A stretch of DNA of 64,000 nucleotides from a virus: the IMG/VR virus record IMGVR_UViG_3300031994_000086, positions 1-64,000 of that record; one strand, 5' to 3'. The notes beneath the pieces were generated by a model, which worked only from the letters and a program-made list of their open reading frames with translations, did not search any database and was not told the origin of the DNA. The position numbers were made by a program, and so were the translations under genes. Below are positions 3,483 through 22,730 of this stretch, one piece after another (within the stretch, counting starts at the first letter, position 1; the number at the start of each line of letters is the position of its first letter).

Positions 3483-3552
3483 CATTTCTTGCTCCAAAAC
3501 AAAAAACGCAAGACCTACAACAACCCATTGTAAAGCCTTACGTTTCGTGTTT

Positions 3553-3600
3553 CTGTCGGGATGACCAGACTCGAACTGGCGACCACACGCCCCCCAGATA
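3553..3600 (-). other. tRNA 3'-half-like segment (T-arm GCCAG-TTCGAGT-CTGGT plus acceptor-like CATCCCGA); candidate attP/att core
   Basis: Minus-strand 'GGTCGCCAGTTCGAGTCTGGTCATCCCGACA' has a canonical T-stem/loop but no matching 5' acceptor strand upstream, so it is a fragment rather than a gene; flanked by arm-type repeats and next to int. Confidence 0.3.
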
Positions 3601-3814
3601 TTATTCAAACGAATTGTAAGGCTTTAAGGTTTAGATAGATACGTTCTTTTGCTTTGGCGAAGTTTACGAAATGTTTACAAATCGTGTGATTTTAACACTT
3701 TTTCAATATTCTCGACACAGCTTTCAAGCTCTTCTATTCGCCTTACTGCTTGTGCGAGAATTTCTGTTGTTTTTCTTCCTGCCTCTAATAGGAAAGATAA
3801 ATCTAAATCCGATG

Positions 3815-4180
3815 TCATTTCTTATTTATATTTTTAAGGGTTTCAAGTAAAGATGATATTTGTTCGTCTTTCTTTTCTATTTGTGCATTAAGTGCGACGA
3901 TATGTGTTTTCAGCATATCAATGTACTCTTGTGTTATTTTATCCGTCTTAATGTTCGGTTCTGCCATTGGCGAGGAAAACATTTCTCCTTCGCCACTAAA
4001 TAACCATGCCCTGCTGAGTTCGGGGTAAAGAGAAAGCACACATTCAAGTACTTTGTCGCTTGGTCTCTGTATATTTCTCAGATAGCCGTTTGAAACATTT
4101 ATTTTCTTTTCAAAACGTGCTGCTGGTATTCCGAGATGATTAATAAACATCAATAATCTGTCTTTCGTTGAATTATCCAT
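3815..4180 (-). CDS. HTH DNA-binding regulator (Bacteroidales-type)
   Basis: 121 aa; N-terminal 'DRLLMFINHLGIPAARFEKKINVSNGYLRNI' helix-turn-helix and the 'LSLYPELSRAWLFSGEGEM' motif typical of a Bacteroidales HTH family. Confidence 0.5.
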   Translation of the reverse strand: MDNSTKDRLLMFINHLGIPAARFEKKINVSNGYLRNIQRPSDKVLECVLSLYPELSRAWLFSGEGEMFSSPMAEPNIKTDKITQEYIDMLKTHIVALNAQIEKKDEQISSLLETLKNINKK

Positions 4181-4202
4181 AATATCGGAGGGTGTTAGGT
4201 GT

Positions 4203-4805
4203 TTATACTAATCTACCGTAGAAAGTGACACGGTATAGCTGTTTTATATCCTCTTTGCGAATAGAGAATGGTTTGTAATTATATGATGTACATATCAAAC
4301 TGTCGGCATCGTTATCATCTACTTGCAGATGCTTAATCATTCTATCGTAGGTGGTAATGATGAGGTATATTTTGTCAGGGTCTATGTATTGATTGCGCTC
4401 TACTTCATCCACCACGATGATATCGCCAGCCTTTATCACTGGCTCCATAGAGCATCCAACTACAGGGAAAGCATATTTGCCGTGCACACCGTCAATCTCT
4501 ATTCTGCCTACTGGCTTTTCATTAGCTATTACGGTTGCGAGGTCATACTGCCCTGCGCTTACCTGAACATCTTTATAATAAGGTATTCCTCTATCAGATA
4601 GATGTGCTACGGGTTGCGTAGTGGGGTAGAAATAAGACATCGGGAGTCCGAGGGCGGTGCTTAGTTCTTCTACAAGCCCCGTCTTAATGTCTTGGGCATC
4701 TAATTTCTGACTAAATGATTGCTGGCTGAGATTTAACAGCTTTGCAATTTCTGTTAGTGACTTTCCAGTTTTCTGGAGTTGCATTTTAAGTACTTCGCCT
4801 GTCAT
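4203..4805 (-). CDS. CI/LexA-like phage repressor (N-terminal XRE HTH plus C-terminal S24 peptidase)
   Basis: 200 aa; 'SLTEIAKLLNLSQQSFSQKL' HTH; 'VVGCSMEP' Ser nucleophile motif and a downstream Lys ('MIKHLQ'); divergent from early genes. Confidence 0.75.
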   Translation of the reverse strand: MTGEVLKMQLQKTGKSLTEIAKLLNLSQQSFSQKLDAQDIKTGLVEELSTALGLPMSYFYPTTQPVAHLSDRGIPYYKDVQVSAGQYDLATVIANEKPVGRIEIDGVHGKYAFPVVGCSMEPVIKAGDIIVVDEVERNQYIDPDKIYLIITTYDRMIKHLQVDDNDADSLICTSYNYKPFSIRKEDIKQLYRVTFYGRLV

Positions 4806-17486: not shown

Positions 17487-17747
17487 ATGAGAACAATATT
17501 TAAGACTAAGCTCGATGTCTGTGACTTTCAGACGATAAAGCTCCCACAGGGCTTTAGTATATTGCATATAGGAATGCAATGCGGACAGCCTTGTATCTGG
17601 TACGAATGCGACAGTGACATGCCTTTGGTAAGCCTTGACATATACTGCTTTGGTACAGGCTTCCGCATGGATGCTTTGCCACCGATGACATATATTGGTA
17701 CGGTCAATCAGAATGATGATTTTATTTGGCATTTCTACCGTGCGTAG
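17487..17747 (+). CDS. hypothetical protein
   Basis: 86 aa; MRT start overlapping the upstream stop. Confidence 0.35.
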   Translation: MRTIFKTKLDVCDFQTIKLPQGFSILHIGMQCGQPCIWYECDSDMPLVSLDIYCFGTGFRMDALPPMTYIGTVNQNDDFIWHFYRA

Positions 17748-18121
17748 ATAGAAAACAAATGTATAACAAAAACATTATTCACATTGAGGGCAGCGAGTTC
17801 TGGGGTAGATACATCTACCTCACTGCTGCACAAGGCTTCGCACTCGTCAAGCTGATATTTGACAACAGATGTGGCAAAGGAGTGTGCGAGATTGGAGAGG
17901 TAAACACACACCCTTGTAAGCAACGACAAGGCTATGCCACTATGCTGATGCAAGAGGCTGAACGCATAGCAAAGGAAAACGGTTGTACCGTCATACAACT
18001 ATGGACTAAGAAAGACAGTTGGATGCAAGAGTGGTATGAGCGTATGGGGTACAAAGTACAGGTTTTTATGACACCTCCGTCAGATGATACAGTATGGTTG
18101 TGTAAAGGGTTAACTAAATAG
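17726..18121 (+). CDS. GNAT-family N-acetyltransferase
   Basis: 'CKQRQGYATMLMQEAERIAKENG' fits the acetyl-CoA binding motif A (Q/R-x-x-G-x-G/A). Confidence 0.55.
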   Translation: MAFLPCVDRKQMYNKNIIHIEGSEFWGRYIYLTAAQGFALVKLIFDNRCGKGVCEIGEVNTHPCKQRQGYATMLMQEAERIAKENGCTVIQLWTKKDSWMQEWYERMGYKVQVFMTPPSDDTVWLCKGLTK

Positions 18122-19736: not shown

Positions 19737-20810
19737 ATGGAAATGCAGACGTTTAATGTAGGCGACAAGGAGTGCGTGGCACTTGTGAGGAAACTGACAC
19801 CTCGTGAATGTTTCCGTCTTATGGGCGTATCTGACACCGATATAGATAAGATACAAGATGCAGATGTCAGCGTGTCGGCACAATACAAACTCGCTGGTAA
19901 CAGTATCGTGGTTGACGTGCTTTACCACATCTTCCGTAAGGCTTTCGTCAATCGTGGCAATGACACAAGGCAGATGACTATCTTTGATGCTTGTGCAGAA
20001 CAAAACGAGATGGAGTACACACACGGCAATCCGCTACGAGTTGTAACGCTTTGCTCTGGGTATGACAGTCAGTGCCTGGCACTTGAAAGATTAAAAGCGG
20101 ACTACCCACCGTTTGATTATGAGCTGATAGCGTGGAGTGAGATAGAACCTGCCGCCTGTAAGGCACACGATGCACTGTTTCCTCAGTGGGCAGACAGAAA
20201 CCTTGGCGATATGACGAAGATTGACTGGAACAACGTACCCGATTTTAACCTTCTGTTTTACAGTATTCCTTGCACGGATATTTCTCAAAGCGGAAAACAA
20301 GCAGGCTTTACTGAGGGTAGCGGCACTCGCAGCTCTATCATCTGGAATGTGCGTGATGCGCTGATGATTAAGAAACCTAAATACGCTTGTCTGGAGAACG
20401 TGGCGGCAATGGTAAGTCAGAAATTCCTTCCGATGTTCAACCTTTGGCAGAACGAGGTAATGCGGTTAGGTTATACCAACTTCGCAAAGCTGCTCAACGC
20501 AAAGGACTACGGAGTACCGCAGAACAGAGAACGTATATTCCTGTGGTCTGTGCTCAACGAGGGCAAGGACGTGAACTATTACTTTCCGCAGCCGATACCG
20601 TTGACTAAGACGCTGAAAGACATCCTTGAAGATGAGGTTGACACACGTTTCTATCTCAATCCTGGGAGGGTGCAGGAGTTTGTTCGTGACAACATAGACA
20701 AGGTTACACAATATGCTAACGATGGTATTGGCGAGATAGAGCCGATGCCCAATAGGCTGAGGGAATGGGTAGAGAATTATGAGAAGAAATGTATCACCAC
20801 AGACAAGTGA
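19737..20810 (+). CDS. DNA (cytosine-5)-methyltransferase with circularly permuted motif order (IX-X-I-IV-VI-VIII-TRD)
   Basis: N-terminus 'TPRECFRLMGVSD' (motif IX) and 'AGNSIVVDV' (motif X); then 'VTLCSGYDSQ' (I), 'PCTDIS' (IV), 'ENV' (VI), 'QNRERIF' (VIII). Confidence 0.65.
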   Translation: MEMQTFNVGDKECVALVRKLTPRECFRLMGVSDTDIDKIQDADVSVSAQYKLAGNSIVVDVLYHIFRKAFVNRGNDTRQMTIFDACAEQNEMEYTHGNPLRVVTLCSGYDSQCLALERLKADYPPFDYELIAWSEIEPAACKAHDALFPQWADRNLGDMTKIDWNNVPDFNLLFYSIPCTDISQSGKQAGFTEGSGTRSSIIWNVRDALMIKKPKYACLENVAAMVSQKFLPMFNLWQNEVMRLGYTNFAKLLNAKDYGVPQNRERIFLWSVLNEGKDVNYYFPQPIPLTKTLKDILEDEVDTRFYLNPGRVQEFVRDNIDKVTQYANDGIGEIEPMPNRLREWVENYEKKCITTDK

Positions 20811-20879
20811 CGGTTGTATTCCTGCGCTGACTACAAGGTATGAGGCGATGGGAGTGACAAATATCATAGACACAGGTCA

Positions 20880-21700
20880 TTACCCAAGGGGGGGGGGTAA
20901 TAGAGTATTATGAAATCAGTAATTAACCAAACGGCAGATAAAAACTGCAGAACCTTGTGCTCACACTACCACAAGGCAGGTGTGACGGATTTCCTGCCTA
21001 TCAGGGGGGGCAGTAGAGAACTAGAAACCGTAATAGTAGAGATTTATGAGAACAAACGTAGTAGCAAACCTGATGTTCCATCCGTATGACACGATGTTTG
21101 AACAGTCAAGGCGTGTGTACGGTGTCAACGCACTCGCTCCTGCAATGCACACAGTAGGGGGGGGTAACTTAGAACCAAAGATAATAGTGGTATATGAGAC
21201 AGACAATATTCGGGTGGTCGAGGGATAGCAGGGGAGTAGTCACGGACAGACACCCCGTCACGGTGTGCAACTGCATCACCGTAGGTATGCGAGACAACAC
21301 CACACCTTATGTAGTAACGGTATATGAGAACTAAGAACAAGACACTTGTATTAGGGGGTGGGTACGCAGGACTATCAGAGGGGTATGGTAATGTGCTTAT
21401 TATAGGACTGATGAGAACCCTGAGCGTGAACACCGCCTATCCGTTTGTTGCACTGATTTATGAGAACAATAATTGTAAGAAATATGATACAGACAAAACA
21501 ATGCCGCAGTTGTGGAAGGGTGCTGCCACTGACAGAGTACGGTATCAACAGAGCCAAGAATGACGGCTACCAGATATACTGCAAGGAGTGCACCAACATC
21601 AAAAGACGAGAATACAGAGATAGCGTAAGACGCAGGGAAAGGCTAAGGATGTATGAGAGAAAGATTGCAAGATAATAGAAATGTATAATAATTAAAAATC
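20880..21700 (+). repeat. degenerate tandem array (about 130-150 bp units) carrying poly-G tracts (G10, G7, G8, G5TG3) and overlapping small ORFs joined by 'tTATGAGAAC'
   Basis: G10 at 20888-20897, G7 at 21004-21010, G8 at 21157-21164; 'tatgaga[ac]' at 21045, 21193, 21321 and 21458; stem TTACCC/GGGTAA flanks the G10 tract. Confidence 0.5.
21460..21675 (+). CDS. basic zinc-ribbon small protein (CxxC...CxxC)
   Basis: 'CRSCGRV...CKEC' followed by an R/K-rich tail. Confidence 0.35.
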   Translation: MRTIIVRNMIQTKQCRSCGRVLPLTEYGINRAKNDGYQIYCKECTNIKRREYRDSVRRRERLRMYERKIAR

Positions 21701-21708
21701 AAAAAAAC

Positions 21709-22143
21709 ATGAAAACGTATTTTGAAGTCGGCATCCGCTACGACAAGACAATGGAGGACGGCAGCGTCCGCAAGGTAACAGAGAACTATCTCTTGGACGC
21801 ACTAACCTTCACTGAGGCAGAGGCGAGAGTGACAGAGGAAATGACTGCCTATATCAGTGGTGATATGCAGGTGGTGACGGAGAAGATAACCAACATCGCT
21901 GAGGTAGTCACCACGGAAGATGCAGAAGCGGACAAGTACTACAAGGTAAAGCACAGCATCCTCACCATAGATGAGAGGTCTGGCAAGGAAAAGAAACAGG
22001 CGCAGTACGTCATTATCCAGGCTGTAAGTGTTGATGATGCGAGGAAACGCTATGAGCAGTACATCAAAGGCAGCATGATGGACTTGATACTGGAGGCTGT
22101 CAGCGAGACAAAGTATGTAGATTATTTCCCTTACAACGAATGA
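21709..22143 (+). CDS. DUF4494-like protein
   Basis: 'MKTYFEVGIRYDKTMEDGSVRKVTENYLLDALTFTEAEARV' resembles the Bacteroidales DUF4494 N-terminus. Confidence 0.4.
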   Translation: MKTYFEVGIRYDKTMEDGSVRKVTENYLLDALTFTEAEARVTEEMTAYISGDMQVVTEKITNIAEVVTTEDAEADKYYKVKHSILTIDERSGKEKKQAQYVIIQAVSVDDARKRYEQYIKGSMMDLILEAVSETKYVDYFPYNE

Positions 22144-22730
22144 AAGACTGGAAGGGAAATACTAACTCTGTGTTCAAAATCATTGGTGCAAGTAATCACG
22201 CAGACCACGAAAGGGAAAAGCGTGATTACTATGCCACCGAGCCAAAGGCAGCTGAAATGCTCCTTGAACTTGAACAGTTTGCATCACATATCCTGGAGCC
22301 GTGTTGCGGAGCAGGACACCTCGCCAATGTGTTAAAGGATGCAGGCTACAAAGTGGAGTGTAATGACATCATAGACAGAGGATGCAACGATACCACAAGC
22401 GACTATCTCACACGCACAGAAGAATGGCAGGGCGACATCATTACCAATCCCCCATACTCTAAAGCACAGGAGTTCGTGGAGAAGTCACTCTCACTTGTCA
22501 GCGATGGCAACAAGGTGGCGATGTTCCTGAAACTCACGTTCCTTGAAGGAAAGAAACGCAGGACACTGTTTGATGAACACCCACCGAGACGTATATGGGT
22601 AAGCAGCTCACGACTGAAATGCGCAATAAACGGAGACTTTGGCAATACAGGCACCAGTGCTACCGCCTATGCGTGGTATGTGTGGGAGAAAGGCTACAAG
22701 GGTAGTCCAGAGATAAGATGGTTTAACTAA
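22140..22730 (+). CDS. N6-adenine (or N4-cytosine) DNA methyltransferase, NPPY class
   Basis: 'ILEPCCGAGHLA' (SAM motif I) precedes 'DIITNPPYS' (motif IV). Confidence 0.6.
   Translation: MKDWKGNTNSVFKIIGASNHADHEREKRDYYATEPKAAEMLLELEQFASHILEPCCGAGHLANVLKDAGYKVECNDIIDRGCNDTTSDYLTRTEEWQGDIITNPPYSKAQEFVEKSLSLVSDGNKVAMFLKLTFLEGKKRRTLFDEHPPRRIWVSSSRLKCAINGDFGNTGTSATAYAWYVWEKGYKGSPEIRWFN

Follow-up and report, generated by a model that had tools for sequence, protein, structure and literature searches.

Positions 19,737 to 22,730 of the 64,000-nucleotide window analysed here (the whole stretch, positions 1 to 64,000 of the IMG/VR virus record IMGVR_UViG_3300031994_000086) encode a circularly permuted C5-cytosine methyltransferase, the polypeptide of which lacks a target-recognition domain (TRD), followed by an array of five short overlapping open reading frames (ORFs), four of which are homologous to TRDs. 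With a probability of roughly 0.6, this locus represents a modular multispecific C5 methyltransferase, in which a shared catalytic core is completed by free-standing TRD subunits, each of them phase-variable. The window belongs to a gut phage and carries the genes of a tailed phage, namely, terminase, portal, major head protein, tape measure and primase; the GenBank phages compared with it gave a DNA match of 4% at most.

The catalytic core and the array of recognition modules

The 357-aa core is matched by PF00145 in two stretches (E 8e-50, 170.6 bits, cut-off 22) and by TIGR00675 (E 2e-48, 165.8 bits, cut-off 100.65). In phmmer comparisons with PDB sequences, residues 17-65 (VRKLTPRECFRLMG...GNSIVVDVLYHI) were aligned with residues 271-314 of M.HhaI, which form motifs IX and X, and residues 150-302 with M.HhaI 52-201, including the PC, ENV and QxRxR signatures. 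This two-piece alignment means that the circular permutation of the core is real. The original prediction had placed motifs IX-X before motifs I-VIII and had proposed a profile alignment of the N-terminal segment as a check; both the M.HhaI alignment and the two-stretch Pfam match agree with that order. The complete motif set of C5-cytosine methyltransferases is present (I, IV with PC, VI with ENV, VIII with QxRxR, IX and X), and the structural neighbours of the core found by Foldseek are M.HhaI, M.MpeI and M.HaeIII. Only 16 residues precede motif IX, and the N-terminus contains a beta-hairpin (TFNV-GDKE-CVALV) ahead of this motif.

The core does not contain the in-chain TRD that is located between motifs VIII and IX in C5 enzymes. 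No counterpart of M.HhaI residues 202-270 was found in it, and positions ~212-270 of the Pfam profile were left unmatched. The C-terminal region, earlier described as TRD-like, thus holds no TRD; the last ~85 residues are just the first, helical and non-specific part of the variable region. The nearest homologues of the core (~60 proteins, 55-92% identity) all end at one point, ..W-x-E-x-Y. Comparison with the core of locus L003, a 92%-identical relative, revealed 63 synonymous and 28 non-synonymous codon differences in the coding frame, against 8/86 and 12/77 in the other two frames.

Five overlapping mini-ORFs of ~45-50 aa, designated M1 to M5, lie within the 0.9 kb downstream of the core, each with its own ATG and each in the +1 frame relative to the preceding ORF (span 20779-21563, between the core and a 196-aa amino-methyltransferase; Table 1). 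The junctions correspond to the C-terminal ..[IV]x[IV]-Tyr-Glu of the preceding ORF, encoded by TATGAR, and the first of them is the end of the core itself, ..WVENYE. An in-frame stop follows 1-32 codons after each module. The same TATGAR junctions are found in L003, L004, L006, L010, L014, L088 and L105. The junction Tyr codon was TAT at all eight module ends that were located without use of the junction motif (57% TAT genome-wide), and in L099, where Phe replaces Tyr, the same +1 frame has an ATG 9 nt further downstream. The retention of TAT, together with the compensating ATG of L099, favours independent initiation of each module.

Table 1. Coordinates of the methyltransferase core, recognition modules and adjacent genes in the window
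Feature	Position	Strand	Details
TRD-less circularly permuted C5-cytosine methyltransferase core, 357 aa	19737..20810	+	motifs IX-X, linker, I-VIII, helical start of variable region; end ..LREWVENYE
Motif IX (RKLTPRECFRLMG) and motif X (GNSIVVDVLYHI) segment, aa 17-65	19785..19931	+	M.HhaI 271-314
Motifs I-VIII (LCSGYDS, IPCTD, ENV, QNRERIF), aa 101-314	20037..20678	+	Pfam profile positions 2-211; M.HhaI 52-201
TRD module M1, ALTTRYEAMGVTNII type	20779..20913	+	10 G at 20888-20897; OFF as sequenced, early end at junction TGA
TRD module M2, CRTLCSHYHKAGVTDFL type	20910..21089	+	7 G at 21004-21010; ON, ending ..VIVEIYE
TRD module M3, RRVYGVNALAPAMHTVGGGNLEPKIIVVYE type	21046..21228	+	8 G at 21157-21164, encoding GGG loop; ON
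TRD module M4, WSRDSRGVVTDRHPVTVCNCITVG..TPYVVTVYE	21194..21334	+	no G tract; constitutively in frame (ON)
TRD-like module M5, ..GLMRTLSVNTAYPFVALIYE	21324..21563	+	interrupted G5TG3 run only; ON
Six T-ATG-A-R junctions	20778, 20909, 21045, 21193, 21323, 21459 (20778..21464)	+	Tyr-Glu upstream; +1 Met-Lys/Arg start; +2 TGA stop
Small CxxC..CxxC zinc-ribbon ORF, 71 aa	21460..21675	+	closes TRD array; ATG in last YE junction
DUF4494 protein	21709-22143		between TRD array and NPPY methyltransferase; PF14902 E 2.5e-42; phrog_19572 (unknown function)
NPPY amino-methyltransferase (N6-adenine or N4-cytosine), 196 aa	22140..22730	+	EPCCGAGH (motif I), then DIITNPPYS

A PHROG search with the mini-ORFs matched no family, and a PDB sequence search with M3 alone gave one chance match only. 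The tblastn searches with M1 to M4 revealed homologous modules in many other arrays. Modules homologous to M1 are present in L089, L017, L099, L102, L011 and L006, and M4 is homologous to modules in L014, L013 and L137 and to an internal TRD of L097, a canonical single-chain enzyme with three TRDs. The TRD represented by M3 was found by tblastn within single-chain methyltransferases of 450-650 aa from Bacillus and Paenibacillus prophages, which share with the M3 type the motif RVYxxxG[IV][SA]PT[LI]xTxGGGxxxPKI. An exhaustive, profile-free search with M3 yielded 139 representative clusters, in which the matches were of three kinds: canonical enzymes that have the TRD in mid-chain; AquI-beta-like proteins, in which two to four TRDs are followed by motifs IX-X (P0126 and P0127); and 34 free-standing proteins of at most 100 aa, ending in ..[IV]YE (P0122, P0124, P0133 and P0159). 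A further architecture was observed in P0121, P0123 and P0134 (114-224 aa), which consist of two to four tandem M3-like TRDs alone, without catalytic motifs, and may be called multi-TRD 'specificity' proteins.

The modules also bear a coding signature. Relative to L003, M5 differs by 10 synonymous and one non-synonymous codon changes in its own frame (1/10 and 0/11 in the other frames), and M3 by five synonymous and three non-synonymous changes (0/7 and 2/5). Judging from homology, M1 to M4 are TRDs, and this third-position-biased divergence indicates that the modules are translated in their own frames.

Poly-G tracts, recurrence of the arrays and probable exchange of modules

Only three G/C runs of at least 7 nt occur in the 64-kb window, and all of them are located in the array (Table 1), where the G10, G7 and G8 tracts encode the conserved Gly-Gly-Gly loop of M1, M2 and M3. 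GGG is otherwise the rarest glycine codon (8.6% of Gly codons in long ORFs). All 10 single-chain ORFs longer than 340 aa spell the loop of the M3 type with a mixture of GGN codons, whereas seven mini-ORF versions have a G8-G14 homopolymer there. Nine arrays together contain 49 runs of G6 or longer, ~5 per kb. A run of G7 or longer was found within 1.5 kb downstream of 18 of the 27 split ORFs encoding motifs I-VIII alone ('A' ORFs) and seven of the 10 permuted cores, but after only one of 91 canonical enzymes. The original prediction had suggested that the two methyltransferases form a dual anti-restriction module bracketing the poly-G array, which was in effect treated as a spacer. The runs do exist, and an anti-restriction role is plausible; the supposed spacer, however, codes for TRD modules, and the tracts sit inside this five-module array, so that 'bracketing' does not describe the locus.

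The homopolymers are positioned within coding sequences and set the reading frame. As sequenced, M1 lies one G away from its open frame; a tract of 9 G would give the ending ..PRGGVIEYYE (..HYPRGGVIEYYE), and an in-frame version is encoded by L003 (1174-1320), in which the tract is interrupted (G7TG). In the window and in L004, L006, L010, L014 and L105, the gain or loss of a single G at the tract gives back the complete M...[IV]x[IV]YE ORF in each module that is out of frame, and these modules show no other lesion. The proportion of modules that are OFF in the consensus sequence is 6/10 in L014, 5/7 in L105 and 1/5 in the window. L004 and L005, which have the same core protein and come from two samples, show two differences over 2235 nt, one of which is G8 versus G9. 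Between the window and L003, the first tract differs as G10 versus G7TG, and the second as G7 versus G8, the latter with a compensating change downstream in L003. Both alternative frames stop soon after the three tracts of the window, but no enrichment of such stops was seen across the 49 tracts of the nine arrays (median middle distance 15 codons versus 14 at random positions), and the idea of designed stops after tracts was rejected.

Two more assemblies, one from an ENA record and one made by Logan from an SRA run, were compared with the window over 2,994 nt, and neither differs from it, even in tract length. Exact-protein look-ups for more copies of the window phage retrieved only assemblies identical to the window, and a pattern spanning the third tract matched nothing in JGI metagenomes or IMG/VR.

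The same kind of downstream array is present in contigs carrying homologues of the core (L003, L004/L005, L006/L007, L010, L088 and L172), and the design is kept across loci to ~50% core identity. A non-permuted, three-part form occurs in L014 and L105, where the 'A' ORF is followed by an array of 7-10 modules and then by a separate 'B' ORF of 95-133 aa with motifs IX-X, the ATG of which lies in a YE junction (L014 5267-5554, L105 5947-6348). The core of the window corresponds to a B-A fusion, and its first ~85 residues match the B ORF of L014; the IX-X segment is a homologue of the B ORFs of both L014 and L105. In P0009 (locus L171) the order IX-X-I-VIII-TRD is realised in a single chain, with one TRD and no array after it. 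The Type H order already known, TRD-IX-X-I-VIII, is seen in P0026, P0027 and P0031, and the relatives L111, P0126 and P0127 conform to the AquI-like division into an alpha polypeptide with motifs I-VIII and a beta polypeptide with TRD, IX and X, with two to four TRDs in beta.

Modules also differ between close relatives. The M4 cassette (window 21199-21320) is missing in L003, and the edges of the gap are two TATGAGA junction repeats; L003 contains at 1596-1922 an M4 remnant and a different, NTITSVQKD-type module after M5, with cores 92% identical. Since the gap is bounded by junction repeats and the content of L003 differs, the junctions appear to be the sites at which modules enter and leave the arrays as cassettes.

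Some of the related loci have further peculiarities. The core relatives L014 (1636-3591), P0025, P0042, P0102 and P0120 carry an intein (Hint and intein-splicing Pfam domains), which interrupts the protein precisely at motif IV, the catalytic Pro-Cys (..YSTPC|LTDDS...VNGAMSKNC|QSISQ). A similar phage contig of ~43 kb with an identical core match (L008 and L009) was binned in a Faecousia metagenome-assembled genome (MAG) and in a Bacteroidales MAG from different samples, and bin-based host assignment is therefore unreliable; the other bins with related loci are mostly Bacteroidales or Bacteroidaceae.

Proposed mechanism and alternative explanations

According to the proposed mechanism, the core would bind S-adenosylmethionine, carry out catalysis and provide the small-domain scaffold, without DNA-reading loops. 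Each module would be translated from the ATG embedded in the Tyr-Glu codons of the preceding ORF, at which ribosomes terminating a few codons later could restart, and each TRD peptide would bind the core non-covalently, completing the small domain. The C-terminal strand [IV]x[IV]YE is a candidate common docking element because it is conserved across otherwise unrelated TRD types; it probably joins the N-terminal beta-hairpin of the core beside motif IX. In the AlphaFold 2 model of P0009 the C-terminal TRD strand (417-423) has a pLDDT (predicted local distance difference test) of ~93, and the N-terminal hairpin (5-19) is confident. The outcome would be a pool of holoenzymes with differing specificities. 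Slipped-strand mispairing could shift a G7-G10 tract by ±1 and thereby toggle one specificity, leaving the core and the other modules untouched. The permutation, which places motifs IX-X ahead of I-VIII, would shield the catalytic motifs from frameshifts in the array, while the three-part relatives instead give IX-X an ORF of its own. Such a system may serve bet-hedging of the phage methylome, methylation being an advantage against Type II restriction by the host and a cost under Type IV restriction, which depends on methylation.

In a more general form, the proposal is that C5 methyltransferases may use free-standing specificity subunits of ~45-50 aa, comparable to HsdS at about one tenth of the size, competing for one core, with up to ~ten of them per gut-phage array, each switched by poly-G. 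This would make the methylome combinatorial, heritable and reversible (2^3 states in the window, far more in relatives), and the permutation would have evolved to insulate catalysis. We consider this generalisation slightly better than an even bet.

Several points weigh against a core completed by separate TRD subunits. We know of no free-standing C5 TRD that has been characterised. In M.AquI the TRD stays covalently joined to motifs IX-X, whereas in the window the TRD alone would be the second subunit, with five alternatives per core. In AlphaFold models the body of the TRD has a pLDDT below 50 both in P0009 and in a chimera of the window core with M3, with the cores confident, and the last strand of the chimera reaches only 48. 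M5 resembles the other modules in its equal length, its T-L-like RTLS motif and the shared C-terminal strand, but by tblastn it has a homologue only in close relatives and none among known TRDs. For each of three phages (window/L168/L169, L172-174 and L006/L007), the two or three assemblies agree in consensus tract length, which speaks against rapid switching. Gene anatomy, homology, coding signature, the distribution of the tracts and the recurrence of the design are observations; the binding of a 45-50 aa TRD to the core in trans, the expression of the mini-ORFs, the specificity of each module, the rate of switching and the anti-restriction role are inferred.

An unlikely alternative is that the modules are joined to the core or to each other by recoding, either through programmed +1 ribosomal frameshifting at TATGAR or through transcriptional slippage on the G tracts, giving one or a few single-chain multispecific enzymes like M.SPRI. 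The uniform +1 offset at all junctions would suit such a process, as would the canonical gene order A, TRDs, B in the three-part relatives and the natural in-frame fusion of core and TRD in P0009, and tracts of G7-G10 are long enough for RNA polymerase slippage. However, the junctions offer no slippery heptamer or shifty-stop context, and tRNA-Tyr on UAU cannot re-pair at +1 (AUG). The chain of L014 would need ~11 consecutive shifts, with six of its 10 modules out of frame. Recoding also leaves unexplained the conserved or compensated ATG starts, the stop in frame 1-32 codons past each module and the 34 clusters of free-standing mini-TRD proteins. An alternative genetic code or suppressor tRNAs were rejected as an explanation: the window contains no tRNA genes, and readthrough of TGA leaves the frames unjoined. 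Next in likelihood, and likewise improbable, is decay, in which the array would be what erosion has left of a formerly single-chain multispecific methyltransferase, with mini-ORFs that are fragments of a pseudogene and a core that is inactive or has a relaxed specificity of its own. An eroding gene would hardly keep its architecture to ~50% core identity, retain a third-position bias in the modules' own frames, preserve the ATG and the C-terminal [IV]x[IV]YE in each module, or confine its homopolymers to one conserved Gly loop written in the rarest Gly codon. Pseudogenes do typically show frame breaks and homopolymer indels, the consensus sequences contain many out-of-frame modules and M1 is broken in all three assemblies of the window phage, but ±1 G at the tract restores every OFF module, with no further lesion.

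The core might also methylate with its own variable-region remnant, the mini-proteins acting apart, for instance by binding DNA as decoys or by regulating methyltransferases or restriction enzymes of the host. The conserved and confidently folded C-terminal 85 residues of the core and the small proteins' own starts are consistent with such a separation of functions, which is nevertheless quite improbable: the TRDs to which the modules are homologous function only within a C5 enzyme, the arrays adjoin only TRD-less cores, canonical enzymes being followed by G7+ runs in one case of 91, and the fused P0009 has a single TRD and no array. Hardly credible is an artefact, that is, homopolymer errors of sequencing or assembly in an ordinary gene. 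Although some platforms are error-prone at homopolymers, the +1 offsets fall at the TATGAR junctions and not at homopolymers, two further assemblies are identical to the window down to the tract lengths, and the pattern is repeated in dozens of unrelated metagenome assemblies.

Neighbouring genes and relation to known systems

The second, NPPY methyltransferase reported in the original prediction is indeed encoded downstream. The 196-aa protein matches phrog_799 'DNA methyltransferase' over its full length (aa 2-196, E 3.5e-70) and contains the EPCCGAGH and DIITNPPYS motifs; its scores with the Dam models are under their cut-offs (PF05869, 20.6 versus 28.1 bits; TIGR01712, 17 versus 97 bits). 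Homologues at <60% identity are present in 674 phage records, and because of this occurrence in ~670 records it is regarded as a separate, ordinary phage amino-methyltransferase. No functional tie between this enzyme and the C5 system was found beyond their proximity. Its start overlaps the stop of the DUF4494 protein gene (22140-22143).

The zinc-ribbon ORF closing the array likely starts at the internal ATG 21484 rather than at the junction ATG. Its PHROG matches (E 1e-8 to 1e-12) are to Lar-like restriction-alleviation proteins and to the zinc ribbons at the N-terminus of endonuclease VII and HNH proteins, and the ORF is kept at the equivalent place in L003 (1931-2122); whether it is part of the methyltransferase system is uncertain. 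Upstream, the same plus-strand gene block includes a GNAT acetyltransferase-like ORF and a DUF7352 ORF (17726-18121 and 17487-17747; Pfam calls on the identical contig L168). In L003, the terminase large subunit gene (3527-4705) of this close relative has a weak LAGLIDADG_3 match, suggesting an intein or a homing endonuclease insertion.

If the proposed organisation is correct, this would be the first C5 methyltransferase that takes its sequence specificity in trans from interchangeable mini-proteins, and, among phage-borne contingency loci, the first found here to toggle methylation specificities one by one. It would provide a concrete rationale for circular permutation, which spares motifs IX-X from frameshifts, suggest that gut phages in dense communities hedge between methylation-sensitive and methylation-dependent restriction, and explain the mis-annotation of such loci as a short methyltransferase followed by 'intergenic' DNA. 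A fixed core with plug-in recognition peptides of ~50 aa would also be an attractive scaffold for programmable writing of C5-methylcytosine and for metagenome mining of new specificities. Full-text literature searches, incomplete in coverage and thus compatible with an earlier description, found no C5 enzyme with free-standing TRDs or per-TRD poly-G switches.

One close parallel is provided by the multispecific C5 methyltransferases of Bacillus phages studied by Trautner and co-workers (M.SPRI, M.Phi3TI, M.Rho11sI, M.H2I and M.SPBetaI; cited in the reference lists of PMC8936443 and PMC12707154), which carry tandem TRDs in one chain. As in that group, in which each TRD gives one specificity, the system of the window is phage-encoded and several short, self-contained tandem TRDs belong to one catalytic framework, with five modules in the window, M1 to M4 being homologous to TRDs; moreover, the M3 type of TRD occurs in Bacillus and Paenibacillus prophage enzymes. 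The TRDs of the M.SPRI group lie within one polypeptide between motifs VIII and IX, whereas the modules of the window do not form a single continuous polypeptide: each has a separate ORF with its own frame, ATG and stop, motifs IX-X are N-terminal, and putative homopolymer switches are placed on individual TRDs.

Natural permuted C5 enzymes are known as 'Type H', in which a TRD comes first and is followed by IX-X-I-VIII (M.BssHII, M.Alw26I, M2.Eco31I, M.Esp3I and M2.BsaI; PMC5944983). The core shares with them the position of motifs IX-X before I-VIII. However, the TRD precedes motif IX in M.BssHII, while the N-terminus of the window protein falls between TRD and motif IX, leaving no TRD in the chain. 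Assembly of an active enzyme from separate polypeptides, cut in the variable region, is known for the split M.AquI, with an alpha subunit comprising I-VIII and a beta subunit comprising TRD-IX-X, and for artificial fragment complementation of M.BspRI, M.SssI and M.HhaI (PMC5944983, PMC3404938, PMC3439449). The window does not belong to the two-polypeptide type of M.AquI, since its motifs IX-X are fused to I-VIII and the separate pieces are TRDs alone.

Repeat-driven phase-variable methyltransferases include Type III mod phasevarions, Type I hsdS/hsdM and Type IIG CjeI-like systems (PMC4889913, PMC6828955). They have in common with the window locus a homopolymer or repeat in the coding sequence, which in them toggles a methylation specificity ON or OFF and in the window would do so. 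These enzymes are bacterial, modify adenine at N6 and are switched by the tract as a whole, whereas the window encodes a phage C5 enzyme with one tract per module, so that specificities could switch independently and combinatorially. The separate, exchangeable specificity polypeptide serving a common catalytic subunit, and the cassette-like exchange of modules, are reminiscent in concept of Type I HsdS, although the latter is of an unrelated fold and enzyme class, comprises ~400 aa with two TRDs, and usually varies by recombination or inversion. Taken together, the locus appears to be a so far undescribed variant of the multispecific, split and phase-variable methyltransferases.

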